NCBI GenBank assembly: GCA_002291845.1
Contig: DBAU01000110.1
Span: 24,030-88,029, forward strand
Length of the DNA stretch: 64,000 bases
Direction: 5' to 3'
DNA from: Alphaproteobacteria bacterium UBA1002
GTDB taxonomy: Bacteria; Pseudomonadota; Alphaproteobacteria; Rickettsiales; UBA998
A program made the translations under genes and the position numbers. Below the pieces are notes generated by a model. The model made no database searches. It was given only the letters and a program-made list of their open reading frames with translations, and was not told the DNA's origin. Below are positions 28,598 to 54,286 of the stretch, piece after piece. How positions within the stretch are numbered: position 1 is the stretch's first letter; each line of letters opens with the position of its first letter.

Positions 28598-29644
<1,047 letters not shown>

Positions 29645-29702
29645 ACGAATCTCTTACCTTATGTTCTCTCATCCTTCGCCTTACGGGGGATGATGGATGT
29701 GT

Positions 29703-30338: not shown

Positions 30339-30411
30339 GGATAAAATGTATCAACTGTTGGGTGTATGACGGAGAAGAATAAAGAATTTTTGGAGCAAAA
30401 CCAATCGCCGA

Positions 30412-30855: not shown

Positions 30856-30858
30856 CGT

Positions 30859-33964: not shown

Positions 33965-34181
33965 GAAATGGACACCTTCCGTTTCATACACAGCATGCCG
34001 CAGGCAAAGGTTCTATGCAAAATACTTTGGCTTTTTGGCTTAAAAATTTTGAAAATCTTTCTTTTATGTATTGTTTTTATTAAAAAAATAGGCTTACATT
34101 CCATACCTCAGCAGCTCAATATCATGATATGCATCAAGGCTTTGATGGCGCTTGGCAATCACACACCCACCCGAGGATAAC

Positions 34182-35645
34182 ATGAAGCCTAAGTCGGCCC
34201 CACTCACCCGCGACGACACCTTCTCTGCCATTGATGAAACCATCCTGCGTGCCTACGATATCCGAGGGATTTACCAGCAAACGCTTGATAAAAAAACAGC
34301 TTTCCTCATAGGCAAAGCCTTTGCCACACTGATTGCAGAGCGCTCTGGCCTTGATCATCCCATCATTGTCACCGCCCGCGATGGCCGTCTTTCTTCACCG
34401 TCCCTCTCTCAAGCCCTCAAGGAAGGCATGGCCTCAGCGGGTGCCTATGTACGGGATGCCGGGCTTGGGCCAACGCCCATGCTGTATTTTGGCGTTTATC
34501 ACCTGAATGCTGCGGCGGGTATCATGGTCACTGGCTCACATAATCCGCCAACCCACAACGGGTTTAAGATGACGGTGGCGCATCAGCCATTTTATGGAGA
34601 GGATATTCTGGAAATCGGCGGCCGCATTAAAGCTGGCACCTTGCGGGATGGGGTGGGCAGCATTACGGAGTCACCCCTGTTTGAAGCCTATATTTCCCGT
34701 CTTTTGAAGGATTATGCAGCAGAGGGCACGAAATCTCTTACCGTTGTCTGGGATCCCGGTAACGGAGCGGCGGGCGACGTGGTCACACAGCTGGCGCAAC
34801 GTCTACCTGGCAAGCACATCACGCTGAACACCACCATTGATGGCACGTTCCCGGCGCACCATCCGGATCCCACGATCCCCGCCAATCTGGTTCAGCTGAT
34901 TGATGCAGTGAAAGCGCACAAAGCGGATGTAGGCGTCGCCTTTGATGGAGATGGGGACCGGTTGGGTGCCGTGGATGCGGATGGTAATATCCTATGGGGG
35001 GACCAGTTGATGGTGTTCTTCAGTCGCGACGTGCTGCGCCGTGTGCCAGGTGCCTGCATTATCGCCGATGTGAAAGCCTCACAGACGCTGTTTGACGACA
35101 TTACCGCCCATGGTGGCCGCGCGATTATGTGGAAAACCGGTCACTCCCTTATCAAAGCAAAAATGATTGAAGAGAAAGCCGCTATCGCTGGAGAGATGAG
35201 CGGCCACCTCTTCTTTGCCGACATCTATTATGGATTTGATGACGGGCTGTATTCTGCGGTGCGCTTACTGGAAATGCTGGCCCGCAGCGAACAAACGCTT
35301 GCACAGATGCGCGCAAGCCTGCCAGAGGTCATGAATACGCCGGAAATACGCATTGATGTCCCGGCTGAGCGTAAGTTTGCCATCGTTGAGGAGATCCGCC
35401 AGCGCGTCGTGGCCGAGGCCGCAGACGGTAAGCCCTATGATGTGAATGAAGTAGATGGCGTGCGCGTGCGCTATGGTAATGGCTGGTGGCTGGCCCGCGC
35501 CTCCAATACACAAGCGGCCCTAATTGTACGCTGCGAAGCACAGGATGCTTCTACCCTGGCAACCCTTAAAATGATGGTGAAGGTGCAACTGAGCGCTTCC
35601 GGCATCGATGTTGACCTCGATCATGTTACGGCAAGCGGCCACTGA
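34182..35645 (+). CDS. Phosphomannomutase/phosphoglucomutase
   Basis: Active-site TGSHNPPTHNGFK and Mg site FDGDGDR. Start set at MKPKSAPL behind the GAGGA Shine-Dalgarno sequence. Confidence 0.9.
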   Translation: MKPKSAPLTRDDTFSAIDETILRAYDIRGIYQQTLDKKTAFLIGKAFATLIAERSGLDHPIIVTARDGRLSSPSLSQALKEGMASAGAYVRDAGLGPTPMLYFGVYHLNAAAGIMVTGSHNPPTHNGFKMTVAHQPFYGEDILEIGGRIKAGTLRDGVGSITESPLFEAYISRLLKDYAAEGTKSLTVVWDPGNGAAGDVVTQLAQRLPGKHITLNTTIDGTFPAHHPDPTIPANLVQLIDAVKAHKADVGVAFDGDGDRLGAVDADGNILWGDQLMVFFSRDVLRRVPGACIIADVKASQTLFDDITAHGGRAIMWKTGHSLIKAKMIEEKAAIAGEMSGHLFFADIYYGFDDGLYSAVRLLEMLARSEQTLAQMRASLPEVMNTPEIRIDVPAERKFAIVEEIRQRVVAEAADGKPYDVNEVDGVRVRYGNGWWLARASNTQAALIVRCEAQDASTLATLKMMVKVQLSASGIDVDLDHVTASGH

Positions 35646-35900
35646 ATTTCAGCGCACGTGGCCCCACGGATGGAGCGACGCATGGAAAAAACAGAGCAAC
35701 CATGCATTTGCCGATTGCGCCGTGAAAAATTTCCATCAATATACGGGGGGTAAATGCAGCCAAACCTACTAAGGAAAGGCTTCTTTACTCAAATTTGCAA
35801 TGTTTGTGCCGTGATTAAGGTAATCGCAAATATTTCCTGAGGTTTTCTTAAGGAAAATGCGCGATAATGTAGTCTAAGCGCATTGTAAGGCCTGACGCAC

Positions 35901-36728
35901 GTGAAGCATTATCGCCCCCGCACCCAATCCCTGGTCCTGCCTGTTAAGGCATGGCTTACCGCAGGAAGCGCACTAATATTACTTTCTGGGGCTATTACTC
36001 TGGCCATTCTTAACCGTCAGGGCCACCCTGTTTCGCACAAAGTGCGTGCCGTGATCACGGATGTCGTAACGCCGGTGGTTTCTGCACTCTCCAGCCCCGC
36101 CGCCCTTTTCCGTCAGGCGGGGGATCGAATCGACCATCTCATCGCACTGGATGAAGATAATCTCCGCCTTCGCGAACAGAATGCCGCGTTGCTCCATTGG
36201 CAGACAGTGGCACGTCGTCTGCAGACAGAGAATGAAACCCTGCGACAATTGCTCAATGTTCAGGCCTCACCAGAATATTTCTTTACCACCGCGCGGGTGG
36301 TCACGGGGAGTGCAAGTATTTTCTCGCATACGCTTTTACTCTCAGAAGGCAGCGCGCGCGGCCTGTCACGCGATCAAGCCGTGATCACGGATGAAGGACT
36401 GGTTGGGCGCCTGATTGAAGTGGGTAAACATTCCGCGCAAGTTTTACTGTTGACCGATATCAACTCACGCATCCCTGTAGAGGTAGAGCAAACCGGCGAA
36501 AAAGCGATTTTAGCAGGTGATAACTCATCACGTCCCTTGCTCCAACTTGCCAATGAAAAAGCCCGGCCAATGGTGGGGCAGCGTATTGTCACGGCGGGGG
36601 ATGGCAACGTGTTTCCCTCCGGGTTTGTGGTGGGTGAAATTGCATCAGTGGGCCAGAATTCGGTGCGTATCCAGCCCTATGTTAATGCCTCCCGGCTCGC
36701 CTTCGTGCGAACCGTTGGCCTGAAATAG
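35901..36728 (+). CDS. mreC: Rod shape-determining protein MreC
   Basis: GTG start, N-terminal TM segment, coiled coil (LRLREQNAALLHWQ) and C-terminal beta domains (VITDEGLVGRLIEVG). Followed by mreD. Confidence 0.85.
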   Translation: MKHYRPRTQSLVLPVKAWLTAGSALILLSGAITLAILNRQGHPVSHKVRAVITDVVTPVVSALSSPAALFRQAGDRIDHLIALDEDNLRLREQNAALLHWQTVARRLQTENETLRQLLNVQASPEYFFTTARVVTGSASIFSHTLLLSEGSARGLSRDQAVITDEGLVGRLIEVGKHSAQVLLLTDINSRIPVEVEQTGEKAILAGDNSSRPLLQLANEKARPMVGQRIVTAGDGNVFPSGFVVGEIASVGQNSVRIQPYVNASRLAFVRTVGLK

Positions 36729-36730
36729 CT

Positions 36731-37249
36731 GTGCCAGCATCAACAGAGCGTGCGCAAGTGACACTGGCGCGCCGCCTGGTTCCTCCCGCTTGCCTGAGCC
36801 TAGCCGCGTTACTTCATCTCTCGCGCGTACCAGTGCTTGAATGGCTTCTGGTAACTCCTGCCATTGATATGGTGGCACTCTACTATTGGACGCTAGCTCG
36901 ACCGAATCGTATGCCGATCTGGGTGCTCTTTGTGCTTGGGCTAATCGTTGATAGTTTTTCCACCACTGTACTGGGTATCCACGCCATATTGTACATTATG
37001 GGCTATGCGCTGGCCCGCCTGATCCGAAGGCATATGGAGGCACCGAGCCTCTTGCCGATGTGGGGGATTTTTGCGGTATGGCTTATGGTACAGTTACTGG
37101 CGGAGTGGTTGATGCACGGCTGGCAACATGAGGCGCTCCCGCCGTTCCGTGCCATGCCTTTGCAATGGGTGATAACACTCTGCATATACCCGCTGATACA
37201 TTTATTCTTTGACCGTGTACTGACCATTGGCCAACGCTGGCGTATCTGA
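36731..37249 (+). CDS. mreD: Rod shape-determining protein MreD
   Basis: 172-aa polytopic membrane protein immediately after mreC. Confidence 0.7.
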   Translation: MPASTERAQVTLARRLVPPACLSLAALLHLSRVPVLEWLLVTPAIDMVALYYWTLARPNRMPIWVLFVLGLIVDSFSTTVLGIHAILYIMGYALARLIRRHMEAPSLLPMWGIFAVWLMVQLLAEWLMHGWQHEALPPFRAMPLQWVITLCIYPLIHLFFDRVLTIGQRWRI

Positions 37250-37296
37250 TTCAGATACGTTAGCTTAGCTTTGCTGATCTATATCTTCTTGTTCCC

Positions 37297-39135
37297 ATGC
37301 GCACCACGCACGAATCTCATCGCATCCTGACGCGCCGAGCCTTTGCGCTGGGCGGACTGCAACTTGGCATCGCGAGTGTGCTTGCCTCTCGCCTTTATTA
37401 CCTTCAGTTCATCAAGGCAGATGAATTTCGTACCATGGCTGAAGATAATCGGGTCAATCTGCAACTACTTGCTCCTGAACGCGGCCTTCTGCTGGATCGC
37501 AACGGTGTGCCACTGGCGGAGAATCGTCCAAATTTTCGGGTCTTGCTTGAGCGTGGTGAGAGAGAAGCAACCCTTGCCATCTTTGATAAGGTTGCAGATA
37601 TTTTGCAGATTTCCCCGCAGGGCCGTCAGAAGCTACGGGCTGATTTAATACGCATGGGACGTGGCCACACACTACTGATTCGTGAATACTTGAACTGGGA
37701 TGAGCTAGCCGCCTTGGAATTTCATTCCCCGCGCTTACCCGGTATTTCTATGGAATCAGGCTTTATGCGCCATTATCCGCTGGTGGATAAGGCATCGCAC
37801 CTGATTGGCTTTGTGGGCGCCGTCACCGAAAAAGATCTGGCGCGTGAGCCAGAAAATAAAGGCCTGTTGAAACTACCGGGCTATAAAATCGGCAAAGACG
37901 GTGTAGAAATTATGCTTGAAAAGCAGCTCCGTGGCAAAGCGGGTATGCTGCATATGGAGATGAATGCACACGGGCTCCCCGTGAAAGAGGTGAGCCGGCA
38001 ACCTGCACGAACCGGCAAGAAAACCACCCTCACCATCGATGCGCGCCTTCAGCAATATGCAGCAGAACGCTTTGGTGAGGAATCCGGTGCCGCCGTCATC
38101 ATGCGTGTGGATAATGGGGATGTTCTCGCGCTCGCTTCGGTACCTGCGTTTGATCCCAACCGATTCAGCATGGGAATTCGCAGCGATTATTGGAAAGAGC
38201 TACTCGCCAACAAAAAAAATCCACTGATGAATAAAGCTATTGCGGGCCAGTATCCACCGGGCTCAACCTATAAGATGCTGGTGGGTCTCGCCGCGTTGGA
38301 GGCGGGAGTGATCACGCCGGCGAGCCGAGTTTATTGTCCGGGCCATTTCTTCCTTGGCAATCACCGCTTCAATTGTTGGAAGCCGGAAGGCCATGGCGCG
38401 GTAAACGTGATCGAGGCCATTGCCAAATCCTGTGACACGTTCTTCTATACCATGGCGCAGCGGCTGGGTATCGATAAGATTGCGGAAATGTCTCGTCGCT
38501 TTGGGCTGGGTGAACCCACCGGTATCGGTCTGCCGCATGAAAAAGGTGGGATCATGCCTGACGAGCAATGGAAGCGACAGCGCTATGGTCAGCCGTGGCA
38601 TCCGGGCGATACCATCAACTGTGGTATTGGTCAGGGGTATGTTCTGGCCACGCCGATGCAACTCGCCATTATGGTGGCGCGGCTATGCACCGGACGGCAT
38701 GTCGAGCCACGCTTAGAGATTCCTGCGGGAGAGGAAGATAAACTTCCTAAGCTGATTAAAGTGGATCCTGGTCACCTCTCCGTCATTCAGCAAGGTATGG
38801 ATGCTGTATGTAACAGCCAGATGGGAACAGCCTACTGGTATACACTGCGTGAGGGCCCTTTCAAAATGGGTGGCAAAACCGGGACCTCACAAGTACGCCG
38901 CATCATCATCCGCGGGCAGGATCAGAACCGCATTCCGTGGGAACAGCGTCACCATGCGCTTTTTGTGGGCTATGCCCCGGTGGAGGCCCCCAAATATGCC
39001 TGCGGCGTGATTGTGGAGCATGGCGGAGGCGGTGCCTCTGCTGCTGCTCCTGTGGCACGCGACCTGCTTGCCAAGACCCTTGAACTCTATGATGGTGGCC
39101 CTCCCCCGCCAGAAAAACTGACGCCCTATTCATGA
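37297..39135 (+). CDS. mrdA: Penicillin-binding protein 2 (elongasome transpeptidase)
   Basis: N-terminal TM segment, SxxK as GSTYK and KTG as GGKTGTSQV. Confidence 0.9.
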   Translation: MRTTHESHRILTRRAFALGGLQLGIASVLASRLYYLQFIKADEFRTMAEDNRVNLQLLAPERGLLLDRNGVPLAENRPNFRVLLERGEREATLAIFDKVADILQISPQGRQKLRADLIRMGRGHTLLIREYLNWDELAALEFHSPRLPGISMESGFMRHYPLVDKASHLIGFVGAVTEKDLAREPENKGLLKLPGYKIGKDGVEIMLEKQLRGKAGMLHMEMNAHGLPVKEVSRQPARTGKKTTLTIDARLQQYAAERFGEESGAAVIMRVDNGDVLALASVPAFDPNRFSMGIRSDYWKELLANKKNPLMNKAIAGQYPPGSTYKMLVGLAALEAGVITPASRVYCPGHFFLGNHRFNCWKPEGHGAVNVIEAIAKSCDTFFYTMAQRLGIDKIAEMSRRFGLGEPTGIGLPHEKGGIMPDEQWKRQRYGQPWHPGDTINCGIGQGYVLATPMQLAIMVARLCTGRHVEPRLEIPAGEEDKLPKLIKVDPGHLSVIQQGMDAVCNSQMGTAYWYTLREGPFKMGGKTGTSQVRRIIIRGQDQNRIPWEQRHHALFVGYAPVEAPKYACGVIVEHGGGGASAAAPVARDLLAKTLELYDGGPPPPEKLTPYS

Positions 39136-40262
39136 TCTCGCAATTAGTTGGTCGCACGGTCAGCCTGAAACTTGCCAGCATTCACTGGTGGGCAGTTGGG
39201 CTTGTCGTCGCGGTGGGTATGGTAGGCCTTGCTATGCTGTATACTGCGGCGGGTGGCCATGTCCGGCCGTGGGCATCTGCGCAAGGCCTGCGCTTCATCA
39301 TCGGGTTGGGAGCGATGATTATCATTGCCGTGATTCCGATTCAATTCTGGCTGAAATATGCCTACGTATTCTACGGCGGCGCACTACTGATGCTTATTAT
39401 TGTGGATGTCATTGGCCATATCGGTATGGGTGCCCAACGTTGGGTAGCGGTGGGTGGTGTTACCATTCAACCATCGGAGTTAGCGAAGCTGGCTGTCATA
39501 CTGGCGCTGGCACGCTATTTCCACCGGATGCCACCGCTCAAACACCCAGGCGTGATGCATCTGATGCCACCGATCCTTATGGTGGCCTTGCCGGCCGTTT
39601 TCATCCTGCGCCAGCCCAATCTTGGAACCACCACGGTGGTGGCAGCGGTCTCCGGCTGGATCGCTTTTGCCGCAGGGGTACGGATGCGCTATTTCATGAT
39701 TGTCCTGGTCACGGTGCTCGCTGCCCTGCCCGTGGTGTGGGAATTTATGCATGATTATCAGCGTCAGCGTGTCATGACCTTCCTCAATCCTGAAGCTGAC
39801 CCATTAGGCAGTGGCTACAACATCACCCAATCCATGATCGCGATTGGATCGGGTGGACTAGCGGGTAAGGGCTTTCTCAATGGCTCGCAGGGTCAGCTGG
39901 ACTTCCTGCCGGAAAAGCAGACAGACTTTATCTTCACCATGCTAACCGAGGAGTTCGGCTTTCTGGGTGGGATGCTGGTAATTGCGGCTTACAGTGGGCT
40001 TATCCTTTACGCTATTGCAGTATCCACGCGCTGTCGCCACTTATTCGGAACGCTCGTTGCACAAGGCATCGCAGCGGTGCTTTGCCTGCATTTTACTATC
40101 AACATTGCCATGGTGATGGGGTTAATCCCGGTGGTGGGAATTCCCCTCCCCCTGCTTTCCTATGGCGGCTCAGTGATGATTACCGTCCTGCTGGGGTTCG
40201 GCTTGCTGTTTAACGTCTGGGTGCACCGCGACGAAAAATTACGGGGCAGTGCAGGAAGCTAA
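39132..40262 (+). CDS. rodA: SEDS peptidoglycan glycosyltransferase RodA
   Basis: Ten-TM SEDS layout with QPSELAKL and LPEKQTDFIF. Overlaps mrdA by 4 nt. Confidence 0.9.
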   Translation: MISQLVGRTVSLKLASIHWWAVGLVVAVGMVGLAMLYTAAGGHVRPWASAQGLRFIIGLGAMIIIAVIPIQFWLKYAYVFYGGALLMLIIVDVIGHIGMGAQRWVAVGGVTIQPSELAKLAVILALARYFHRMPPLKHPGVMHLMPPILMVALPAVFILRQPNLGTTTVVAAVSGWIAFAAGVRMRYFMIVLVTVLAALPVVWEFMHDYQRQRVMTFLNPEADPLGSGYNITQSMIAIGSGGLAGKGFLNGSQGQLDFLPEKQTDFIFTMLTEEFGFLGGMLVIAAYSGLILYAIAVSTRCRHLFGTLVAQGIAAVLCLHFTINIAMVMGLIPVVGIPLPLLSYGGSVMITVLLGFGLLFNVWVHRDEKLRGSAGS

Positions 40263-41035
40263 CGCTTCGTATCACCCGTGGCCAGCGCCGCCAGATATTT
40301 CCAGTTTACTTGCGAAAACAGGCACGCGTGGATCAGCGAAATCCAGTCCAGTTTGCGCCAGTCGAGATAAATTTCATCCGGCAACTGACGGAACTTTTCT
40401 TCATCAATGGTCATAAATCCGCGCAGATTAACGCTGCTCCCATCCGGAAGTGCCAGCGTGGACACGCGCTCTACGAGTAATTCCTGCTCCTTCAACGCCT
40501 CCACAAAATCGCGTGTCAGACGGTAATGCTGCTGGTACGCACTGCAGAAATCCAGCGCCCGCTGTGCAACCTCTGCTGCCTTACCCTCGACATAGAAGGG
40601 ATGGGCAGGCTGTTGCGCGGCAAAATTCTCTGCTGCTTCATCAATACATAAAATCCACTGTTGACGATCCGGCGATTCCATCAACGCGAAAGGATATTTC
40701 CGCACATACGCGGGGATGTAGGCGTCGCTGCGCCACTGGCCAGCGATGGTGAGAAAATAATTCTCGCTTTCCAAACCAACCAGCGCAACCGGCATATTGT
40801 CTTCCCCGGCGGTAAACACGATCGGGTAACTGCGGGCAGCTTCTGCAAACTCAATGGCATTCAGCGGAATAGAGTTTGTCGGTCGCGCAAAAGAGAAATG
40901 GCTTAATACCCCTATCCCGGCTTCGGCATGCCGATCCAGTGTAATGGGTTGCGGTGATTTATAAAAAAGCGGCAACTGACTGACCGGGGAGGCCCCGGTG
41001 GTTGTTCCGTTGTGACGCTCTTTCGCCCCGACCAT
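40259..41035 (-). CDS. SapC family protein
   Basis: LPLFYKSPQPITLDRH near the N-terminus and an overall SapC-like layout. The ATG at 41035 is preferred over the TTG at 41074. The stop overlaps the convergent rodA stop. Confidence 0.7.
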   Translation of the reverse strand: MVGAKERHNGTTTGASPVSQLPLFYKSPQPITLDRHAEAGIGVLSHFSFARPTNSIPLNAIEFAEAARSYPIVFTAGEDNMPVALVGLESENYFLTIAGQWRSDAYIPAYVRKYPFALMESPDRQQWILCIDEAAENFAAQQPAHPFYVEGKAAEVAQRALDFCSAYQQHYRLTRDFVEALKEQELLVERVSTLALPDGSSVNLRGFMTIDEEKFRQLPDEIYLDWRKLDWISLIHACLFSQVNWKYLAALATGDTKR

Positions 41036-41064: not shown

Positions 41065-44000
41065 TTACTGGCAACCTGATGCATCAAAATTAGCGCCATA
41101 GCCTGCGTCAAGATAATAGTTGCCGCAGCTACCCTCAACGCCTCCTTGCGGATTGAGGGTGTTGAGGTTATTCGCCACTTCTCCTCCGGCAGCCGGGCTC
41201 AGGCCCGCCAATCCTTCCGGCGAAGTAATACCTTCTGTCGGCTGCCCGCTCCCGTTGGAAGACGTCCCACTGGAGCTCGCCCATGCGTATCGGGCGCGCT
41301 TCGCATCCGAACCGCCGGTCAAACGCGGACGGACTAACGCTTTATTTTGGTTTGCCCCCCCCGCCGCCGGGCTGAGGTTAGCCAGTGCCGCAGCATCTAC
41401 ACCCGTGGGTACCGTCACGCGCCCTGGCGTCAGCAAGCTGAGATTTACCTCAGTATTGCCGAAATAATATTGATCACCGGCGGTCTCACCAAAGAAGGAG
41501 TAGAGATTGCGCGCAAAGCTGGAGAGACGATTGAGCTCAATTTCCTCCAGTAAATCGCTTACCAAAGGCACAGAAGGCGCTGCAGGAGGCGTTACGGACG
41601 GCGTCTCTGGAGGAGAGACCGGCGGCACCGGACCTCCTGGATCATTCACAATGAGAAGGCTAGCGATGTTTCCGGCCACATTCTGTGTGCTGGTAAAACG
41701 CCCCTGACGGGAGGCCAGATTTGCCACCGCGAGCGGATTCGCCCCATTATAGGTAATGTTCGCTGCACTGTTGCTGCTGGTTCCAAGAGCCACGATCTCC
41801 AGCGTCGCGTTGGCCACACCGACAACCGGATCACCCTCTTGGGTGGACGTGGAGCTTTGCGCCCGAGAAACCGTATCACCAAGCGCGACGCGGCCATTGG
41901 GTGCACCCATAAAGAGGTACGCACTCGCATCGGTACCTCCCATGGATTCCACCAGTACATTCCCCAGCGTTAGGTCATTTCCTGCATCAAAAAATGCTTC
42001 GGCGAAGGTGGTGCCACTGTCGCCGGGAGCCGAACTGCGTAACCCGCCTCGAGCAAGAACCTCCACATTCCCGGTAACCGTAAGATCACCGCCCGCCGCA
42101 ACATTGAGCGTCACTTCACCACGGCGCGTCGCATCCTGACGATCCTCGCCTCGCAGCAGAATATCGCCATTGATGAGAACTTGATCATCCGCGTTGATGC
42201 TGATGGCCATCAAATCCACCGACCCAGCCTGTGGGCCATCTTCTCCAATCAGCGTAATCGGACCTGTGGTGACATCCTCATCGGAGACAAGGGTAATGCG
42301 TGTGGTGCCAAAGGTTCCCGCACTGCTGATTGCACCCGTAGAAATCGAGCCGTTCTGGGTTGACGTCAGTGTTATATTGCCTGCCTCAAACGCCCCGTTC
42401 ACTTGGTTCAGGACATCGTTAGCCACCAACAGCGCGTCGCCGGTTGTCAGGCTGCCCAGCGAGATACCGCCGCTCCCCGCGCGCACATCAAGGTTAGCAA
42501 GGAAGGCTTGGATTCCTCCGAGCGCGGTAACAGATTTTCCACCATTGATATTCAGACTACGTGAGGACTGGATCGCCGTGGGGGTTCCCGTCAATACAAT
42601 GGCGTCCTCAGGCGCTGTCACCCTTACTGCGCCGTTTATCAGCACATCGGTGGTTGCACGGATCGCCGTGCTGAGATTGGTAATCGGCACCAATATGCTA
42701 TTGGCCGTCATGGTAATCGTGCCAAGCGAATCACCCACCCCAGAAACCGTTTTCTGGGCCAGTGAGAGGACATCATCTCGGGTGATCAACTGGTTTGTCG
42801 CCGTAAGGGTCACTTCAGACAACGCATCGTGGCCACCCCTGGCATTTGCCTGTACCGCACTGAGGTTAACATTCGTACCGCTGACGCTAATGATGGCTTC
42901 TGAAGAACCAAGACTGAACGGCGTCAGCAAACCACCTTGTGCATTGGCGGTCACTTGGCTATTGGCCGTGACATCACCGGTGGTTGAGATGAGGGAAATA
43001 AATGCACTGGCAATGCGGTTGGCATCCTGCAGATCCCGGGAACGGGCAACAACATTCCCCGTAATGGAAATATCATCTTCCGCCAGCACATCTATCGTGG
43101 CACGTCCAGCAGAGCCTGGCTCGGGTCGGTCATCAATGCGGACACTGAGGGCGCGTGCCGTGAACGCACCGGAGGAATCAACGATAATACTTGAATCATC
43201 TCTTGTTCCACGAACCGTGAGGTTGCGCACGTCGATATTGCCGCCATTCGTAGTGGCCAGTCGGATGGTACCGGCAGCCACATCACCATTTGGCGCACCG
43301 AGAGCCGGATAAGCCCCGTTAATACCGGTTGCTATGCTGCCGATGTTTATGCCGCCAGCCCCTGCAGACAGGGTCACATCACCAGAGGTCGTGCGAATAG
43401 TATCACCTTTGGAAGCAAAGCGAATTTCACCGTTTGCGCCGAGCGTGCGCAAAGTGATATTTCCCGCACCGCCCTGCAGCACATTATCCGCCAGATTATC
43501 CATCCGTATCAGATCGGTGGCCTCTAACGTCACGTTGGAGCCCGCTTGAGACTGTGCTTCGATCCACTGCTCGGCAATGTTATTGACGAGTCCGTTGAAC
43601 CCACCATTGTTGATGATAATTTGTGCCGGGTCGATCACGATACTTCCCAAGCGACCGCCAAAATTATCGACACTAAGCGCCCCGGCCAGCAGGATGTCAG
43701 CACCGCTGAAATCAATTCGACCGGCTCTATATCCATCGGCGCTGATGGACGCATTACTGAGTAACGCCGCATCGCCCCCTTTGGCCAGCACCTGCACGCG
43801 ACCAGCCGTCCCTTTTAGTTTACTGGAGCTGTTGGCGCTCAGCCGTGTGTTACCAACTCCCCCACCAATGATGGCGTGACGATCAGCCGTCACACGAACC
43901 GTGCCAGCGGTTTGACCATTGGACTGGAGTGCCCCGCTTCCACGTACAACAACATCACGGCCTGTCACCTCTACGCGACCGCCCACCTGTTCGGCCGAAG

Positions 44001-44865
44001 CGCTGACACTGCCTTCCACCAGCACGAGACCGTTGGGCGTGGCGACCAAATCACCCGCATCAACAATCCCCTGCGTGTTAATAACCTGATTGACCACATT
44101 GCTTGCGGCTTGTGCTGTCAGATAAATTTGGCCACCGCGCGCTTGCACCTGACCCCCAACGCTCACCTGTGCGGCACTATTCTCATTGCTTACGGCAAAA
44201 TTCACCAGGCCGTCGCCCGTCAGATCAAGGGTCGCTTTCTCCGCCCCTGCCAGCAATACTTTGCCCTGGTTCGCGGAAATAATACCCTGATTGATCACCT
44301 GAGGCGCCACCAACGCCACCAACCCTTGCTCCTGCGCTGTGCTGACGATCTGGGCGCCGTTTTGAACTTCGATCCGCGCATTTTGCGCCCCCGCTGTGTT
44401 AAAACGCAGGCGATCATTGTTCATGAACTGATTGCTGTTAATGTTCGCCGTGGTTGCAATCAACCCCCCGACATCGATGCGTGCCTGTGGGCCAAACACC
44501 ATCCCATTGGGATTGCTGATGATCACGCGGCCATTGGCTTGAATCGCACCAAGAATCTGGGAAGGATTCGCATCCGCCACCACGCGGTTAAGCGTAATGG
44601 CACTGACGCTTGGCTGGTTAAAGCGCACGGTTTCGCCATTATTCACATTAAATTGATTCCAGTTGATGACGGCTTTAGCAGAGTCTTGTTGAATGGTGGT
44701 CACGCTGCCCACCGTGGAAATACCGGCCGTTCCATGGGTGACATCACCCCCGGTTGGAAGCGCATAGGCTATGGAAGGAAGAACCAACAACGCCGCGGTT
44801 AGCGCGCTTGAGCGAGTCAGGCGATATGCATGAAAACGGAAAGAATTCGCGGCTTGGCAGGTCAT
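41065..44865 (-). CDS. Two-partner-secretion exoprotein (TpsA, filamentous-haemagglutinin-like adhesin)
   Basis: Signal peptide, then a TPS domain (AKAVINWNQFNVNNGETVRFNQP and ISNPNGMVFG). A long G/A/N/T/V-rich beta-helix-like body follows, then a Pro-rich linker and a 165-aa tail. The ATG at 44865 behind AAGAGGA is preferred over the TTG at 44895. Confidence 0.85.
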   Translation of the reverse strand: MTCQAANSFRFHAYRLTRSSALTAALLVLPSIAYALPTGGDVTHGTAGISTVGSVTTIQQDSAKAVINWNQFNVNNGETVRFNQPSVSAITLNRVVADANPSQILGAIQANGRVIISNPNGMVFGPQARIDVGGLIATTANINSNQFMNNDRLRFNTAGAQNARIEVQNGAQIVSTAQEQGLVALVAPQVINQGIISANQGKVLLAGAEKATLDLTGDGLVNFAVSNENSAAQVSVGGQVQARGGQIYLTAQAASNVVNQVINTQGIVDAGDLVATPNGLVLVEGSVSASAEQVGGRVEVTGRDVVVRGSGALQSNGQTAGTVRVTADRHAIIGGGVGNTRLSANSSSKLKGTAGRVQVLAKGGDAALLSNASISADGYRAGRIDFSGADILLAGALSVDNFGGRLGSIVIDPAQIIINNGGFNGLVNNIAEQWIEAQSQAGSNVTLEATDLIRMDNLADNVLQGGAGNITLRTLGANGEIRFASKGDTIRTTSGDVTLSAGAGGINIGSIATGINGAYPALGAPNGDVAAGTIRLATTNGGNIDVRNLTVRGTRDDSSIIVDSSGAFTARALSVRIDDRPEPGSAGRATIDVLAEDDISITGNVVARSRDLQDANRIASAFISLISTTGDVTANSQVTANAQGGLLTPFSLGSSEAIISVSGTNVNLSAVQANARGGHDALSEVTLTATNQLITRDDVLSLAQKTVSGVGDSLGTITMTANSILVPITNLSTAIRATTDVLINGAVRVTAPEDAIVLTGTPTAIQSSRSLNINGGKSVTALGGIQAFLANLDVRAGSGGISLGSLTTGDALLVANDVLNQVNGAFEAGNITLTSTQNGSISTGAISSAGTFGTTRITLVSDEDVTTGPITLIGEDGPQAGSVDLMAISINADDQVLINGDILLRGEDRQDATRRGEVTLNVAAGGDLTVTGNVEVLARGGLRSSAPGDSGTTFAEAFFDAGNDLTLGNVLVESMGGTDASAYLFMGAPNGRVALGDTVSRAQSSTSTQEGDPVVGVANATLEIVALGTSSNSAANITYNGANPLAVANLASRQGRFTSTQNVAGNIASLLIVNDPGGPVPPVSPPETPSVTPPAAPSVPLVSDLLEEIELNRLSSFARNLYSFFGETAGDQYYFGNTEVNLSLLTPGRVTVPTGVDAAALANLSPAAGGANQNKALVRPRLTGGSDAKRARYAWASSSGTSSNGSGQPTEGITSPEGLAGLSPAAGGEVANNLNTLNPQGGVEGSCGNYYLDAGYGANFDASGCQ
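41182..41202 (-). other. LSPAAGG motif, copy 2 (candidate BTLCP/LapG-type cleavage site)
   Basis: ctg agc ccg gct gcc gga gga encodes LSPAAGG, residues 1232-1238 counted from the TTG start. Confidence 0.4.
41356..41376 (-). other. LSPAAGG motif, copy 1 (candidate BTLCP/LapG-type cleavage site)
   Basis: ctc agc ccg gcg gcg ggg ggg encodes LSPAAGG, residues 1174-1180. Its codons differ from copy 2. Confidence 0.4.
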
Positions 44866-45058
44866 GGAGTCCTCTTTGGAAGAAAGGGATGGCAAAAATG
44901 CCGTCCTTTAATAAACAAGGTGTCTGGGTACTATAAAAATGGATCAAATCCAAGTTTTATTTACCCAAAATTAACCATTTGTCCGAAGGAAAACGGAAAA
45001 AGCACGGGCTGCCTCACAGAAATCAAGAGACACCACACGAAAATAAAAGGCGCTAACT

Positions 45059-46768
45059 CTAGTAGATGTAGGTCAACGAGAAGAAGCCGCGAACATCATC
45101 GCCGTCAGTGCCTTCCGCGGAAACATCACGGGTGAGTGGTACCGCGATTTCCGCACTGCCCGCAATGTTCTCCGTGAGCGAGAAACGCAGACCCACGCCT
45201 GAAGAGGCAAGGGAGGCCTGACTATTTTCTCCCACCAGCGCATCACGGTTCCATACCTTACCCACATCATAAAAACCGTAGAGCTGGTAGATGTCCATGG
45301 ACCATTCCGGGAGGGCATCGCTGAAGCGCAATTCCACACGGCTGGCCAGACCGTGATCGCCCGTCAGCTCTGCGGGATCATAAGCGCTGCCAAAAGCGGG
45401 CCCGCCAAGAGCAAATTCTTCTGATGCAAACAATGGATCAAGCGCGTATTGACCGTTTAAACCGACATACAGAGAAAACGCCTGGCTCAATGGTTGCAGG
45501 CGGGTATACTGCCCGGTAAAGCGTGTGAATGTAGTGTCAGCATTGGAACGCGAGCGAAGATCTCCTGCGTCATTTGCCCCCGCCACGTCAAGGCCCTGCA
45601 CCGCCTCAAAATCTAACCGGTTGACCCCTTGCAGCCCATCAAGCACGTCATAGGCACCGCCGACATAGAGGCTACGGATATTGTCTTCAAACAGCTCAGT
45701 GTTCAGGACATCCGTGGTGGAATCACGATAGCGCAGGCCGAGATCGCCAAACAGATTTTCCTGCCGCGAGCGCAGGAAAGGATGACGAGCCGCCAGAACA
45801 AATGCCGCACTGTCACCCTCAATCTCTAATGCCTCGAGCGAGCCCCCCGGACGGGTTTCCGCATAGGAGAAGACCCCGCGCACGGTTGTCCCCTCAGAAC
45901 CCACAGGCTGCTGGTATGTGCTTTCAATAAAGCGCAGCTCATCAAAATTAGAGGCCGTTATGCCACGTACTTGAATGCGCTCAGAGAGTCCCAGCGCAGA
46001 GTTTGTCGCCACTAGACCCGTGGTCTGAAGGGGTCCAAGGAAACGGCTACCCCGGTTATCCACCGTGAGATTTGCATCAACTGGATTACGCTGCATACTA
46101 ACGGTCAAACGTGATGCACCCGGCGTATTCGGAGACGGGCTCAGCACACCACGCGCAGCCGCCCCAGTCAGATCATCAATGAGCAGCAGATAGCGCTCAA
46201 GCACTTGATTGCTCAGTGGACGTGCCTCGGTGATATGACGTGCATACGATTCCAGCAAAGCTTTATTCTGGCCCTCCGCGCCTTCAAAGGTGACTTCATC
46301 AATAAATCCTTCGACGATGCGAATGGTTACTGTACCATTCTCAATACGTTGCCCAGCGGGAAGGATCGCGCGGCTAAGAATATACCCCTGATTACGATAA
46401 TAGGCCGTTATCCGCTCAGCAATCGCGCGCAACCCTCCTAAGGTCACGGGCTTGCCGAGCTGTTCCGCATAGAGCGGAGCCAGCTGGTCATCCGAAATCG
46501 CTGTCGCACCTTCAATTACGACGCCGTTGAGCACAAAGCTTGCGCCCCCGTCATCAGTCGACAGTGCTCCCTCGCGCGGCTGAACCGGGACAACGCCTGT
46601 CGCGTCGAGCTCCGGGCGCTGATTTTCGCTCCGCAAACGTTGCTGTACCTGTCCGGGATCAACGGTCTGCGGTATCGAGGTCGGCGAAATAGATTGTGCA
46701 ACCACCGCCGCGGGCATGCACGTCGCCACAGAAAAAAATAATGCCGCGCGAAAAAAACCAGTACGCAT
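45059..46768 (-). CDS. TpsB outer-membrane transporter (ShlB/FhaC/HecB family)
   Basis: Signal peptide, POTRA region (FVLNGVVIEGATAISDDQL) and a beta-barrel ending in an aromatic residue (FFSLTYIY). Located upstream of tpsA. Confidence 0.9.
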   Translation of the reverse strand: MRTGFFRAALFFSVATCMPAAVVAQSISPTSIPQTVDPGQVQQRLRSENQRPELDATGVVPVQPREGALSTDDGGASFVLNGVVIEGATAISDDQLAPLYAEQLGKPVTLGGLRAIAERITAYYRNQGYILSRAILPAGQRIENGTVTIRIVEGFIDEVTFEGAEGQNKALLESYARHITEARPLSNQVLERYLLLIDDLTGAAARGVLSPSPNTPGASRLTVSMQRNPVDANLTVDNRGSRFLGPLQTTGLVATNSALGLSERIQVRGITASNFDELRFIESTYQQPVGSEGTTVRGVFSYAETRPGGSLEALEIEGDSAAFVLAARHPFLRSRQENLFGDLGLRYRDSTTDVLNTELFEDNIRSLYVGGAYDVLDGLQGVNRLDFEAVQGLDVAGANDAGDLRSRSNADTTFTRFTGQYTRLQPLSQAFSLYVGLNGQYALDPLFASEEFALGGPAFGSAYDPAELTGDHGLASRVELRFSDALPEWSMDIYQLYGFYDVGKVWNRDALVGENSQASLASSGVGLRFSLTENIAGSAEIAVPLTRDVSAEGTDGDDVRGFFSLTYIY

Positions 46769-47527: not shown

Positions 47528-47625
47528 CACACTCGACAGAGCGATCTTAGAATGTATGGTTGATTTTTTATGGTTTTTCACCCCTCAAGGGTGCAACAAC
47601 TAAGTTAAGAACGGGTAAATTCAGC
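47528..47625. promoter_or_regulatory. Divergent control region between the BTLCP-tpsBA operon and the receptor gene
   Basis: 98-bp AT-rich spacer. It contains the direct repeat TATGGTT (47555-47561 and 47569-47575) and a small palindrome caccc-N5-gggtg (47579-47593). Confidence 0.35.
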
Positions 47626-49728
47626 ATGGAAACACGTGCCTTGGTGCCTTCTATGTCGCGCGCATCGAAACTGGCGATGCTTGGCGCATGGCTTTTTCTA
47701 GTCCTTATTGGGTTTTCCGCTGTTTTCTGGATGGCGCAGGAAGAAATCTCGCGTCAAGAGGCCGAGTGGGAGAACCGTCTTGAAATGCTCTCAGCCTCAC
47801 AAAGCCGCAATGTCGGGGGATGGATCGCACAACGCCGAGAAGCGTTGGCCAATCTAGCCGATAATCTTTCACTCAAACTGTACATGACAGAGCTTTCTGC
47901 TATCTCGCAGCCTCAGGATTTTGGGCTGGAAGAGCCTGCCCAGCTGATGTTTTTGCGTAATTTAATCTTCAGCACCGCAGCCAATAATGGCTTTGGGGGC
48001 ATGGCACAGCCGGATGTGCGGGCGAATACCGATATTGAAAAAGACGGGGGTATCATGCTGCTCAATGTTCGCGGTGAGGCGCTGGTTATGAGCCGGAACA
48101 TGCCCGCTCTGAGCCAGCTCCCGACCGAATTGCAAGCCGCTAAGGATGCCAAAGAACCGCTTTTCAGCGGTCCATTTCTAATCAATGATCAACAAGTTGC
48201 GGTGGCTTTCCGCCAGCCGGTCATGCCAGTGCAAGCGGAAGACAATGCTACACCGATTGGTCAGATTATGGCCGTTGCGACCCTGGATGATAAATTTTTC
48301 CGGCTGCTGGAGCCTGCGGTTCCACAGGGAAAAACGGCCGAAGGTCTGCTGGTTAGCTGGGATGATAGTGAACTGACGTATTTTTCTAATCCGAAGGATA
48401 CGCAAGAGCCGATGGCGCAACGCGCAGGTCAGAGCGATCCGGCGACAGTGGCCGCCATTCAATCCAGCGGGCGTATGGTGGGCGCACGTGACGCCCGAGA
48501 GCGGCAGGTTTTCGCAATTGCCCAACCCGTTGAAAATGCAAGGGGATGGTGGCTGATCCGAAAGGTAGAGCGCCGAGCCGCACTCGGTGATGCCCTCCAA
48601 CGCACACGCTTGTGGAAAATCAGTTATTTATTGTGTGCTGCATTATTAACCGCTGCCGCCATCGCATTCTTCCGTCATCAATCAGCACTGCGCGCCAAAG
48701 AAGCGGCACGCCATTACCGCAGTTTGGCTAATCGCATTGAACGGCAGGAACAGTTACTTACCCTGATTGCCGAAACCTCCCCGGTGGCTACCTACATTCT
48801 CGATGCGGAGGAGCGATTACGGTATGCCAACCGACGCGCGGCAGAAGCGTGTGGCATGGATCGCGAATCGCTGATTGGCAAAGGGCTTATTGATATTCTT
48901 GGGGCCGCCCGCGCTGAATCCATCCTGAGAGTGAATAAGGAAGCACTGGAAGGGCATGCCTCACGGAGCTCTCTTGAGCAGGAGGTCGTCGATGACCTGC
49001 CCGTCCGCGCTCTCGCGCGTGAGCATATCCCCCTTTACGCCATCCCCTTTGGCGATGCAGAAACTACCCAGCCCGGTGTGCTGGTTCTGGAATCAGATGT
49101 CACATCGCTGATCCAAAGCCAGGAAAAACAACAGCGTACGCTGCATCATCTGATCCGTACCATGGTAGCTATTGTCGATAAGCGTGATCCACATGCCGCC
49201 CATCATTCTGCGTGTGTTTCGATGATTGCTGAGGCGGTGGCACATACCATGCAGTTGGCCAGCCCTTATCCGGAAGCTGCTGCGGTTGCCGGACAATTGC
49301 TAAATCTTGGGAAAATTCTAGTCCCGGAGGAACTGCTAACAGCAAAATCACTAAAAGCCGATGAACGGGAGAGGATTCGCGCGTCGTTAAAAGCAACAGC
49401 AGATTTATTGCAAGGCATCGACTTTACCGGACCGGTTGTCGAAACCATCCGACAATCTCAGGAATCGGTGGATGGCAGTGGCCCTCTTGGACTAAAGGGT
49501 GATGCAATTTTAATTTCTGCCCGCATTGTGCATGCTGCCAACAACTTTGTGGCCCTCATCAGTGCACGCGCTTACCGCAGCGGAAAATCCGTTGATGAGG
49601 CCTTAAAAATCCTTCTGGAAGGCATCGATACGCAATTCGACCGATCGGTTGTCGCGGCCCTAGTTACCTACATGGATAATGGAGGCGGCCGGACAGCACT
49701 GACGGACTGCTTAAAAGAGGCGGCATAG
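47626..49728 (+). CDS. Transmembrane signalling receptor: periplasmic sensor domain, PAS, degenerate HD-GYP domain
   Basis: TM1 is LAMLGAWLFLVLIGFSAVFW, followed by about 280 aa of periplasmic sequence and TM2 LWKISYLLCAALLTAAAIAFF. A PAS-like region (VATYILDAEERLRYANRRAAEACGM) follows, then an HD-GYP-like fold with mutated metal ligands (LNLGK for HDIGK, GSGPLGLKG for GSGYPxGLKG). Confidence 0.75.
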   Translation: METRALVPSMSRASKLAMLGAWLFLVLIGFSAVFWMAQEEISRQEAEWENRLEMLSASQSRNVGGWIAQRREALANLADNLSLKLYMTELSAISQPQDFGLEEPAQLMFLRNLIFSTAANNGFGGMAQPDVRANTDIEKDGGIMLLNVRGEALVMSRNMPALSQLPTELQAAKDAKEPLFSGPFLINDQQVAVAFRQPVMPVQAEDNATPIGQIMAVATLDDKFFRLLEPAVPQGKTAEGLLVSWDDSELTYFSNPKDTQEPMAQRAGQSDPATVAAIQSSGRMVGARDARERQVFAIAQPVENARGWWLIRKVERRAALGDALQRTRLWKISYLLCAALLTAAAIAFFRHQSALRAKEAARHYRSLANRIERQEQLLTLIAETSPVATYILDAEERLRYANRRAAEACGMDRESLIGKGLIDILGAARAESILRVNKEALEGHASRSSLEQEVVDDLPVRALAREHIPLYAIPFGDAETTQPGVLVLESDVTSLIQSQEKQQRTLHHLIRTMVAIVDKRDPHAAHHSACVSMIAEAVAHTMQLASPYPEAAAVAGQLLNLGKILVPEELLTAKSLKADERERIRASLKATADLLQGIDFTGPVVETIRQSQESVDGSGPLGLKGDAILISARIVHAANNFVALISARAYRSGKSVDEALKILLEGIDTQFDRSVVAALVTYMDNGGGRTALTDCLKEAA

Positions 49729-51498: not shown

Positions 51499-52344
51499 AT
51501 GCAAACCCCCTCTCGTCGCTCGTCACAGGCGGGCTTTACCCTGATCGAATTATCGATCGTTCTGGTAATCATCGGCCTCATTGCCGGTGGTGTACTGGTT
51601 GGTCAAGATCTGATTCGCGCCGCTGAAATCCGTAGCCAAATCGACCAGCTTGACGCATATGACGCCGCAGTGAATACCTTCCGCGGCAAATACAATGGTT
51701 TGCCGGGAGATCTCTCCACCGCAGCCAACTTTGGTCTGGCCAACACCAACCTTCTGGCAACCGCACGTGGCCGAGGCAACGGGAATGGCCTGATCGAAAG
51801 CGCCGGCACCACGGGATTGGTTGGCTATATGGGTGAAAACGTGATTGCCCTGACGCACCTCAACCAGGCCAACTTGACCAAGGAAGGTATGCTTACAGTT
51901 GACTACACCGCGGCGATCACCGGTATTGCTGATACCAACATGCCCCCCGCCAAGCTGGGTAAAGGAAATCGCATTTACTTTACCGCTCTCAACGGCCTGC
52001 ATTTCTACTTTATTGCAGGATTTAACGGCAACACCACTGCCACCACGGCGGTCTTCAGTGCGGCCCCAACGGACAACATGACCCCAAATGAGGCGTTCCA
52101 GATCGACACCAAGCTCGATGATGGTATTCCCAACACGGGGATTGTTCGTCCCCTCACCTTCGCCGCTGCAGCAACCGTAGCGGGTGTAGCCGCTGCGGGT
52201 GAAGCGGGTGCCACCGACGCCGGTGCAGCCACCCCGGCCGCGGGTGATTGCTGGGACACGGATGCTCCAGTCCGTTATGCCACCGACACGGCCACTACGC
52301 GTGACATCGTTGGCTGCCAGCTGCGTATCCGCGCCAGCTTCTAA
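51499..52344 (+). CDS. Prepilin-type N-terminal cleavage/methylation domain protein (large type IV pilin or pseudopilin)
   Basis: Leader MQTPSRRSSQAG then FTLIELSIVLVIIGLIAGG (Gly-1, Phe+1, Glu+5). C-terminal Cys pair CWDTD...VGC resembles a pilin D-region. Confidence 0.75.
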   Translation: MQTPSRRSSQAGFTLIELSIVLVIIGLIAGGVLVGQDLIRAAEIRSQIDQLDAYDAAVNTFRGKYNGLPGDLSTAANFGLANTNLLATARGRGNGNGLIESAGTTGLVGYMGENVIALTHLNQANLTKEGMLTVDYTAAITGIADTNMPPAKLGKGNRIYFTALNGLHFYFIAGFNGNTTATTAVFSAAPTDNMTPNEAFQIDTKLDDGIPNTGIVRPLTFAAAATVAGVAAAGEAGATDAGAATPAAGDCWDTDAPVRYATDTATTRDIVGCQLRIRASF

Positions 52345-53300: not shown

Positions 53301-53861
53301 AGAGCACCTGTTTCTGGGAAGGCCATTCCACCGGCAGATTGGCAATCAGATCTTGCAGATGCAATGTCGCCGGCTGGCTACCGGTGAGGATGCCGGAGAG
53401 AATCTCCGGTGTAAGAAACATTAGATTCACAATGCGCGAAACATAGGTGCGACTCATGCCAACCTGCTGCGCCAACTCGGTGATGGTCACCTCCCCCGTT
53501 TCTAACAGACGGTTCCACCGCCAGGATTTCACCAGGGCATTCACCAGTACTGGATTCTAGCGTGACCGCCGAACACTCTTCAGCGGCCTTGCCATTGCCC
53601 CGGGTTGTGTAGGTTGGCGTATAGACACCCCCAGAGGGAGCGTAGCACTTGCCAGCAAGTAAGGTCCCATGCTTGGCATGCGCCTTAGCGCGATGTTGCT
53701 GGCCTTCTTTCAATGCCGCCTGCACCTCCTGCCAGAGTTCCATCGGAATGATGGCCTGATGCTGGCCTTCGTAGGTTTTATCCTTATGGATGATGCGGCC
53801 GATATAGAGCGGGTTGTTGAGAATCTTATAGAGCGCCTGATAGCTGAAGGGCTGGCCGCCC
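53278..53861 (-). pseudogene. Large serine recombinase remnant (no catalytic N-terminal domain, frameshifted, internally deleted)
   Basis: Three frames carry recombinase-domain text. These are KGGQPFSYQALYKILNNPLYIGRIIHKDKTYEGQHQAIIPMELWQEVQA, then AKHGTLLAGKCYAPSGGVYTPTY, then MSRTYVSRIVNLMFLTPEILSGILTGSQPATL. An in-frame TAG lies at about 53862. Confidence 0.65.
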
Positions 53862-53869
53862 TTCTACAC

Positions 53870-54120
53870 CAGGAATTCACCAATGCGGCTGATGGCAATG
53901 TTATTGAATTAAAGAACAACTATCGCTCAACTCCAAGGATAATCAACGTAGCCAATGCTTGGTCACAGACCATTCAGCAACTTGGCTCTTTACCGAATCC
54001 TCATATGGCACACGGGAACACGGGACGTACTGATTATTCAGAGCGACATGTGTCGATTAGCAGATTTGCAGATACTGTTGCAGAAGCGGATAGAATTGCA
54101 GCTACAATTAATGCACTAGT
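53870..54120 (+). pseudogene. UvrD/Rep-family helicase internal fragment
   Basis: VIELKNNYRSTPRIINVANAW resembles the conserved UvrD-family xLxxNYRS motif region, with no upstream Walker motifs. It abuts the recombinase remnant on the opposite strand. Confidence 0.5.
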
Positions 54121-54286
54121 GAACGCTGCAGCCAAGCTGAGCGGCTACATCGCCGCTAATCTTCGTATCGGCCGCCACTTGCTGTGTAAGCTCATTAAGT
54201 TTTGCCGCGATTCCCTTACGCGCTTCTCCAAGCTGACCCAGAATTTGTGATTCTTTCTCAAGTGCTTCCTTGTCAAATGTCAGCAT
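54116..54286 (-). CDS. Possible small coiled-coil protein (56 aa)
   Basis: An ATG behind GGGGG-N5. Sequence MLTFDKEALEKESQILGQLGEARKGIAAKLNELTQQVAAD. No family recognised. Confidence 0.25.
   Translation of the reverse strand: MLTFDKEALEKESQILGQLGEARKGIAAKLNELTQQVAADTKISGDVAAQLGCSVH

Follow-up and report, generated by a model that had tools for sequence, protein, structure and literature searches.

The window analyzed here is a 64,000-nucleotide stretch of Alphaproteobacteria bacterium UBA1002 (assembly GCA_002291845.1, contig DBAU01000110.1, positions 24,030 to 88,029 of the forward strand). Within it lies a gene for a membrane protein, referred to below as the receptor, that carries a degenerate HD-GYP domain near its C-terminus. 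A gene for a LapG/DvhG-family periplasmic cysteine protease (BTLCP) is located 104 bp upstream in divergent orientation, and the protease strand continues with genes for TpsB, TpsA and a SapC-family protein (Table 1). TpsB and TpsA are the transporter and the adhesin-like exoprotein of two-partner secretion (TPS), or type Vb secretion. Judged by sequence, the receptor is a member of the family of DvhD, the cyclic di-GMP (c-di-GMP) receptor of Desulfovibrio vulgaris, and it appears to be coupled here to a type Vb rather than a type I adhesin.

The initial annotation had placed an HD-GYP domain at 49141..49728. This interval is the C-terminal part, in frame, of an open reading frame (ORF) at 47560..49728 (+). 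The longest ORF of the receptor (TTG 47560) overlaps that of the divergent protease (GTG 47581). According to gene calls and alignments of homologs, the two genes in fact begin at 47626 and 47521, respectively, which leaves a 104-bp divergent intergenic region. The Met at 47626 is the receptor start in public gene calls and in eight full-length homologs, and residues of the 700-residue protein are numbered from it, so that residue n begins at 47626+3(n-1). The order within the protein is transmembrane helix 1, periplasmic dCache-like domain, transmembrane helix 2, PAS domain, stalk helix and degenerate HD-GYP domain. The Pfam model HD_5, which is of the HD-GYP type, matches residues 512-675 over profile positions 2-170 of 170 (E=5.4e-30), and this match is not a chance resemblance. 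Pfam HD (PF01966) was not detected in the receptor; canonical relatives match both PF13487 and PF01966. A Pfam scan of the periplasmic segment (~290 residues) gave no match.

Table 1. Features of the receptor, protease and adhesin genes in the window.
Feature	Position	Strand	Evidence or remark
DvhD-like receptor gene, 700 aa	47626..49728	+	ORF; identical (100% over 700 aa) to public gene call P0001
Transmembrane helix 1	47662..47739	+	~residues 13-38; Kyte-Doolittle windows >1.6; sequence ASKLAMLGAWLFLVLIGFSAVFWMAQ
Periplasmic domain, predicted dCache-like	47740..48609	+	~residues 39-328; Foldseek match to DvhD dCache 9RC2
Transmembrane helix 2	48610..48675	+	~residues 329-350; hydropathy scan; sequence LWKISYLLCAALLTAAAIAFFR
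Cytoplasmic PAS domain	48772..49107	+	~residues 383-494; Pfam PAS_4 E=8.4e-10; TIGR00229 sensory_box E=1.7e-8
Degenerate HD-GYP (HD_5) domain	49159..49650	+	residues 512-675; of 8 metal ligands only H527 kept
LapG/DvhG-family periplasmic cysteine protease (BTLCP, Peptidase_C93), 212 aa	46883..47521	-	Pfam, 4FGO alignment, gene call
BTLCP D-C-E calcium/catalytic motif	47123-47137	-	
BTLCP catalytic His	47018-47032	-	
BTLCP catalytic Asp	46979-46990	-	
TpsB outer-membrane transporter	45059..46768	-	Pfam ShlB E=5e-28, POTRA_2 E=1.1e-19
TpsA adhesin-like exoprotein, 1276 aa, N-terminal TPS secretion domain	41065..44895	-	Pfam TPS E=2.3e-33
First PAAG in TpsA, candidate BTLCP site	41359..41370	-	aa 1176-1179, 101 residues from C-terminus
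Second PAAG in TpsA, candidate BTLCP site	41185..41196	-	aa 1234-1237, 43 residues from C-terminus
TpsA C-terminal Cys pair, candidate 'cysteine hook'	41071..41127	-	C1257 + C1275, 18 residues apart
SapC-family protein (PF07277)	40259..41035	-	Pfam SapC E=3.2e-57

The metal-ligand columns of the HD-GYP domain were read from HMMER pairwise alignments to PmGH (4MCW), PA4781 (4R8Z), V-cGAP3 (5Z7C) and DvhD (9RBZ), from a MAFFT alignment of 84 family members with the same four references, and from a comparison of the family profile with the PDB. The three readings agree, and the codons were checked. The eight metal ligands are E185, H189, H221, D222, H250, H276, H277 and D305 in PmGH numbering, and they fall, in this order, on H523, H527, L559, N560, S587, S611, Q612 and N639 of the receptor. 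Only the H189 equivalent survives (1/8). Among the neighboring positions, PmGH K225 and E278 are kept as K563 and E613, D308 is V642, and the GYP motif is reduced to G619-P620 by deletion of the Tyr.

Most of what the initial annotation had read in this region by eye was borne out. It had claimed that nearly all metal ligands are replaced, and both the pairwise and the MAFFT alignments put the number at 7/8. The first His, which it considered kept, is H527. It had read HHHE as RQSQE, and S611, Q612 and E613 do occupy the positions of H276, H277 and E278; its reading of the Asp region VADxFDA as AANNFVA agrees with N639 and V642. The GK, DGSG, GLKG and ARI elements of the surrounding scaffold are present as it stated, and RxYR is retained too. 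Other details required correction. HDIGK is replaced by LNLGK as claimed, but the HD pair has become LN (L559, N560) and not NL, and the span 49297-49314 encodes the six residues LLNLGK. The GYP motif is lost, but it is more aptly given as G-P, with just the Tyr deleted, than as GPL. Two substitutions had been overlooked, H250 to Ser and E185 to His.

Active HD-GYP phosphodiesterases (PmGH 4MCW, PA4781 4R8Z, V-cGAP3 5Z7C and RpfG) share the fold and the HD_5 match with the receptor at 26-28% identity, and the RxYR, GK and DGxG scaffold is common to both. In contrast to these enzymes, the receptor lacks most of the ligands as well as the GYP Tyr and is membrane-bound with a periplasmic domain. 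From these residues the HD-GYP domain is predicted to be unable to hydrolyze c-di-GMP, as its di/tri-metal centre is lost. Phosphodiesterase activity could in principle persist through an unconventional metal site or a metal-independent mechanism, as H527, E613 and K563 are retained and H523 stands in place of the third-metal Glu. However, the L, N, S, S, Q and N found at the other replaced positions cannot build a di- or tri-metal centre, and DvhD, which keeps two ligands (the H189 and H250 equivalents), is inactive with all ions tested (PMC13090378). Residual activity, which we regard as very improbable, was rejected on the ligand chemistry and the DvhD precedent.

The replacements are not peculiar to this receptor. 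Word-indexed searches with the receptor protein and with a 9-sequence profile returned just nine full-length relatives and did not reach DvhD. An exhaustive profile search recovered 2,876 clusters (50% identity) at E<1e-30, more than 150 of them at E<1e-134, and the top 150 are nearly all full-length matches of ~700 aa. When one genome per species was scanned, relatives proved to be encoded in at least 271 stretches, almost all in Alphaproteobacteria and including those of cultured species (Dongia mobilis, D. deserti, D. sedimenti, Virgifigura deserti). In the 84 alphaproteobacterial relatives of the MAFFT alignment, D222 is replaced by Asn in 81/84, H250 by Ser in 75/84, H277 by Gln in 70/84 and D305 by Asn in 83/84. 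The H221 column holds Met or Leu. The kept residues are conserved as well, H189 in 81/84 and K225 in 84/84. The mean top-residue frequency is 0.60 in the HD-GYP domain, higher than in any other part of the protein (0.44-0.46 in the PAS and periplasmic domains).

That conservation peaks in this domain, and that its replacements are shared throughout the family, indicates a constrained non-catalytic function rather than decay. The loss of the catalytic motifs is what would be expected of a remnant in a gene that is losing its function. The ORF is nevertheless intact, and the number of close clusters, the spread of relatives over species and the conservation of the domain speak against a remnant. 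The chance that the domain is decaying is negligible, and a pseudogene is refuted by the conservation data. The initial annotation had described a catalytically dead HD-GYP domain that may act as a nucleotide- or partner-binding module, a description supported by the ligand loss, the family-wide replacements and the kinship to DvhD described below.

In a phmmer search of the PDB the best matches of the receptor were 9RBZ and 9RC0 (E=2e-25), followed by V-cGAP3 (4e-15). A family profile built from 55 sequences matched 9RC0 across the PAS-stalk-HD-GYP region with E=5e-81, the next chain reaching 2.5e-40. Both entries were deposited as 'HD domain/sensory box protein' and are D. vulgaris DvhD (PMC13090378). 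An AlphaFold2 model of the full receptor was made from a 9-sequence alignment, with a mean predicted local distance difference test score (pLDDT) of 73.5. Foldseek comparison of this model with the PDB also gave the DvhD structures 9RC0, 9RBZ and 9RC2 as best matches, with 9RC0 at the top overall and a TMt of 0.76-0.78 for 9RBZ. The periplasmic segment matched the DvhD dCache domain 9RC2 best (E=5.5e-7, TMt 0.69), ahead of the dCache structures 6MNI and 7PRQ. By all three methods DvhD is closer to the receptor than any other solved HD-GYP protein, and the HD-GYP domains of the two are ~33% identical.

DvhD combines a periplasmic dCache domain with a PAS and an HD-GYP domain, the latter carrying SQ in place of HD and MN in place of HH. 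For c-di-GMP it has a canonical and a dimer-bridging site, with a Kd of ~99-320 nM; it does not hydrolyze c-di-GMP with any ion tested, and the packing of its stalk helices changes upon binding (all PMC13090378). Through DvhD, the LapG-like protease DvhG comes under c-di-GMP control (PMC13090378; PMC10990149). The receptor and DvhD (DVU1020 of Desulfovibrio (Nitratidesulfovibrio) vulgaris Hildenborough) have the same order of transmembrane, dCache-like, transmembrane, PAS, stalk and HD-GYP elements. Both have lost metal ligands, with the replacement of D305 by Asn common to the two, and both are paired with a BTLCP protease gene. The receptor is the more degenerate, with one ligand kept against two and LN instead of SQ at the HD position.

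The residues with which DvhD responds to c-di-GMP were compared in the same way (DvhD numbering is the 9RBZ chain index + 490). In DvhD the substitutions R650A, Y652A/R653A and P567T have the strongest effects, and c-di-GMP destabilizes these mutants instead of stabilizing them (PMC13090378). All of these residues are retained in the receptor, as R648 (R in 83/84 relatives), Y650 (Y/W/F in 73/84), R651 (R in 83/84) and P567 (P in 69/84). DvhD L577 and M646 correspond to L576 (L in 79/84) and L644 (M or L in 82/84), and K520 and K582 correspond to R520 (R in 84/84) and R581 (R or K in 60/84). The receptor fits the DvhD type in all features examined except three peripheral nucleotide contacts, which are taken up below.

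The protease gene next to the receptor encodes a BTLCP with a signal peptide, and its product matches Pfam Peptidase_C93 with E=2.5e-18 and, in an alignment that brings the motifs into register, Legionella pneumophila LapG (4FGO) with E=3.8e-22. It retains both the C-H-D triad and the calcium motif D-C-E. The signal peptide distinguishes it from the Dvh protease, which has a transmembrane anchor. Of the related loci, 74 have an upstream flank of at least 1.5 kb; a BTLCP gene stands beside the receptor gene in 68/74, and in 67 of these the two are within 1.5 kb. TPS genes adjoin the receptor in only 8/83 related loci, and in Dongia mobilis the receptor-protease pair stands alone amid housekeeping genes. 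Taken together, these counts indicate that the link to the adhesin is locus-specific, that the receptor-protease pair is the conserved unit and that the adhesin can be encoded elsewhere. At one locus (L002 2698-4037) two tandem BTLCP genes precede the receptor homolog P0009 (34% identity), and the 8.4-kb contig carries no TPS genes.

The initial annotation had drawn an analogy to the degenerate EAL domain of LapD. With a LapG-family BTLCP gene as the divergent neighbor, the analogy turned out to be more literal than it was stated. The receptor, however, differs from LapD in that Pfam gave no match to LapD_MoxY_N, HAMP, GGDEF or EAL in it, and its domain content identifies it as a predicted functional analogue of LapD rather than a homolog. 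LapD docks LapG via a conserved periplasmic Trp, and DvhD is reported to be without one (PMC13090378). In the periplasmic domain of the receptor, W66 (47821-47823) and W308 (48547-48549) are invariant or nearly so among 55 family members.

LapG/DvhG cleavage follows the consensus [T/A/P]AAG, in which the bond joining the two Ala residues is cut (PMC13090378). TpsA contains two such motifs, both PAAG in an LSPAAGG context near the C-terminus, and no further [T/A/P]AAG occurs in the protein. A pair of Cys residues follows. The window TpsA and five orthologs (to ~37% identity) each have 1-3 PAAG within approximately the last 120 residues and then Cys-x17-Cys; the second PAAG and the Cys spacing are conserved in all six. 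This arrangement resembles that of Pseudomonas aeruginosa CdrA, a TpsA protein that LapG cuts at a C-terminal TAAG (2105/2106 of 2154 residues) and that a cysteine hook at its C-terminus retains in CdrB (bioRxiv 10.64898/2026.07.13.738186; PMC11898600). Accordingly placed motifs make TpsA a likely substrate of the window BTLCP.

The P. aeruginosa LapD-LapG-CdrA/CdrB circuit, in which a c-di-GMP-gated periplasmic BTLCP frees a two-partner-secretion adhesin, is the closest parallel for the adhesin side of the cluster. In both cases a C-terminal [T/A/P]AAG lies upstream of a Cys pair, but TpsA has two motifs where CdrA has one. CdrA, the characterized P. aeruginosa target, is encoded in a separate cdrAB operon, whereas receptor, protease, TpsB and TpsA form one cluster in the window. 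The Dvh operon differs in that its adhesin is an RTX protein of a type I secretion system (T1SS) with an N-terminal retention module, whereas the window adhesin is of type Vb with C-terminal cleavage motifs. T1SS components were absent from the window ORFs scanned with Pfam, which comprised part of the ORFs on both sides of the cluster.

We consider it probable that the receptor is an inner-membrane, inside-out c-di-GMP receptor of the DvhD type that controls the neighboring protease and, through it, the release of the adhesin. When cytoplasmic c-di-GMP is high, it would be bound by the dimeric, metal-free HD-GYP domains through a nucleotide core comprising R648, Y650, R651, P567, L576, L644, R520 and R581. 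Binding would re-pack the stalk helices lying between PAS and HD-GYP, and this change would reach the periplasmic dCache-like domain via both transmembrane helices. The dCache-like domain would then hold or inhibit the calcium-dependent protease. With the protease restrained, TpsA would stay anchored in the TpsB pore by its C-terminal cysteine-pair plug. A fall in c-di-GMP would free the protease, which, on the periplasmic side, would cut TpsA at one or both of the PAAG motifs, so that the adhesin would be shed.

Several observations weigh against this reading. Nucleotide binding, ligand identity, the direction of signaling and TpsA cleavage are inferred from the comparisons above, and for DvhD, too, the way in which the protease is restrained awaits explanation (PMC13090378). 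The likeness of the periplasmic domain to that of DvhD comes from a model of medium confidence, and it is structural only, as the family sequence profile did not find the periplasmic structure 9RC2 in the PDB and the periplasmic sequences are not recognizably similar. No GGDEF or EAL genes were found among the window ORFs scanned, which were a subset of the whole. The remaining points concern the nucleotide site. DvhD Y621, the GYP Tyr that hydrogen-bonds a phosphodiester, is deleted in the receptor and in 39/84 relatives. In P0008 (L001 10001-12100), which is 39% identical to the receptor and belongs to the same five-gene cluster, an 11-residue deletion has removed the whole HHE...GYP loop (QESVDGSGPLG), so that this part of the DvhD nucleotide site must be dispensable in at least one lineage. 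R569 of the DvhD bridging site is Glu in the receptor, and the column of the guanine-reading E668 holds Gly in the receptor and varies among Q, G, E and D in the family. Because E668 is not conserved and R569 is changed, affinity or ligand identity may differ from those of DvhD.

These differences bear on the possibility that the degenerate HD-GYP domain senses another nucleotide, such as 3'3'-cGAMP, pGpG or a different dinucleotide, with the same control of the protease downstream. DvhD binds 3'3'-cGAMP merely ~five-fold more weakly than c-di-GMP (PMC13090378), and the receptor lacks both the guanine-specifying Glu and the phosphate-contacting Tyr. The clamping core of R648, Y650, R651, L576 and L644, however, matches that of DvhD and of the c-di-GMP-specific enzymes, and every characterized BTLCP-adhesin circuit responds to c-di-GMP. 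A different nucleotide is unlikely on this evidence.

The domain might instead bind no nucleotide and serve as a dimerization or partner scaffold, with the input entering through the dCache-like or PAS domain, either from outside to inside or purely within the periplasm. dCache and PAS domains are usually ligand sensors, which would suit such an arrangement, and the loss of the GYP Tyr, together with that of the whole loop in P0008, indicates that part of the DvhD site can be spared. Other degenerate HD-GYP proteins also act without detectable c-di-GMP turnover. An example is PA2572 of P. aeruginosa (YN-GYP), a regulatory protein in which c-di-GMP hydrolysis was undetectable (PMC3411652), but this is a soluble response regulator with a REC domain, only its HD dyad is altered, and it has no link to a BTLCP. 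Against a scaffold, conservation in the family is highest at the residues most critical for the DvhD response (R648 and R651), and it is lower in the PAS and periplasmic domains, which would carry the input, than in the HD-GYP domain. Because of this pattern a ligand pocket fits better than a generic scaffold, and we regard a nucleotide-free domain as improbable.

The control of adhesin release by c-di-GMP through a DvhD-type receptor is preferred over both alternatives. Having lost the GYP Tyr and the guanine-reading Glu, the large alphaproteobacterial branch of DvhD-like receptors may respond to another ligand or rely on just a portion of the DvhD site. It is possible, though we find it doubtful, that the branch is mechanistically distinct in this way and that a subset is hard-wired to a type Vb adhesin and to SapC, possibly an unrecognized component of adhesin release.

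If the favored reading holds, the use of a metal-free HD-GYP domain as c-di-GMP receptor for a LapG-type protease is not confined to Desulfovibrio. DvhD-like receptors would constitute a large family, conserved among free-living Alphaproteobacteria (with Dongia and Virgifigura as cultured examples), and would pair with a second class of adhesins, those of two-partner secretion, as well as with type I adhesins. Alphaproteobacterial DvhD homologs are already known. The list of 78 homologs in PMC13090378 includes Sneathiella, Kiloniella, Pelagibius and Fodinicurvata, with T1SS neighbors. The extensions made here are modest and would hold little surprise for specialists. Two-partner secretion is mentioned neither in the main text nor in the supplements of that paper (Font et al.), and SapC is not mentioned in its supplements. 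What is new is the apparently hard-wired type Vb target, by which control of the DvhDG type is joined to a substrate of the CdrAB type, and the more degenerate nucleotide site. For annotation, we suggest that an HD_5 protein whose ligand columns read [ML]N, S, xQ and N and whose gene adjoins a Peptidase_C93 gene be called a c-di-GMP receptor and not a phosphodiesterase, a rule that is relevant wherever c-di-GMP turnover enzymes are counted in genomes. The natural variation of the GYP loop, with the Tyr or the whole loop deleted, could be used to ask which of the DvhD contacts are essential.

The five-gene arrangement of SapC, TpsA, TpsB, BTLCP and receptor is kept in loci whose receptor is 39-46% identical to that of the window. 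SapC co-occurs in eight related loci (L001, L003-L006, L009, L010 and L014), and in 3/8 it is the immediate neighbor of the BTLCP gene; the contigs retrieved for these three loci showed no TPS genes. The AlphaFold2 model of SapC is confident (pLDDT 90.2), and Foldseek found no significant match for it in the PDB (best E=0.4). A SapC homolog, P0196, adjoins an RTX-like protein and a TolC-like OEP. A scan of the locus for promoters and terminators gave nothing above the shuffle background.

The stretch upstream of the cluster (19444..40262) is core chromosome, with genes for FtsH, TilS, a CpoB-like protein, TolB, TolQ, RuvB and YebC, and further for ManC, phosphoglucomutase, MreC, PBP2 and RodA. 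Into this chromosome the adhesin cluster is inserted, between rodA and a tRNA-Thr gene, and in L001 and L003 it likewise follows PBP2-RodA. The tRNA-Thr gene (49785-49859, -) begins 57 bp downstream of the receptor gene. In L003, the locus of a 75%-identical ortholog, the equivalent spot (12351-14903) is occupied by small ORFs and a fragment of an integrase (Arm-DNA-bind_3), none of which occurs in the window. This difference suggests that the cluster edge at tRNA-Thr is an integration hotspot.

Beyond the tRNA gene, a 193-aa ORF at 53669..54250 (+) resembles the C-terminal domain of UvrD only weakly and in part, over profile positions 1-71 of 350, and may be a gene fragment. A 281-aa protein encoded at 51499..52344 (+), between an SDR gene and cutA, has an N-terminal prepilin-type methylation motif (N_methyl) followed by a low-complexity body rich in Ala, Gly and Thr, and it is conserved in L003.

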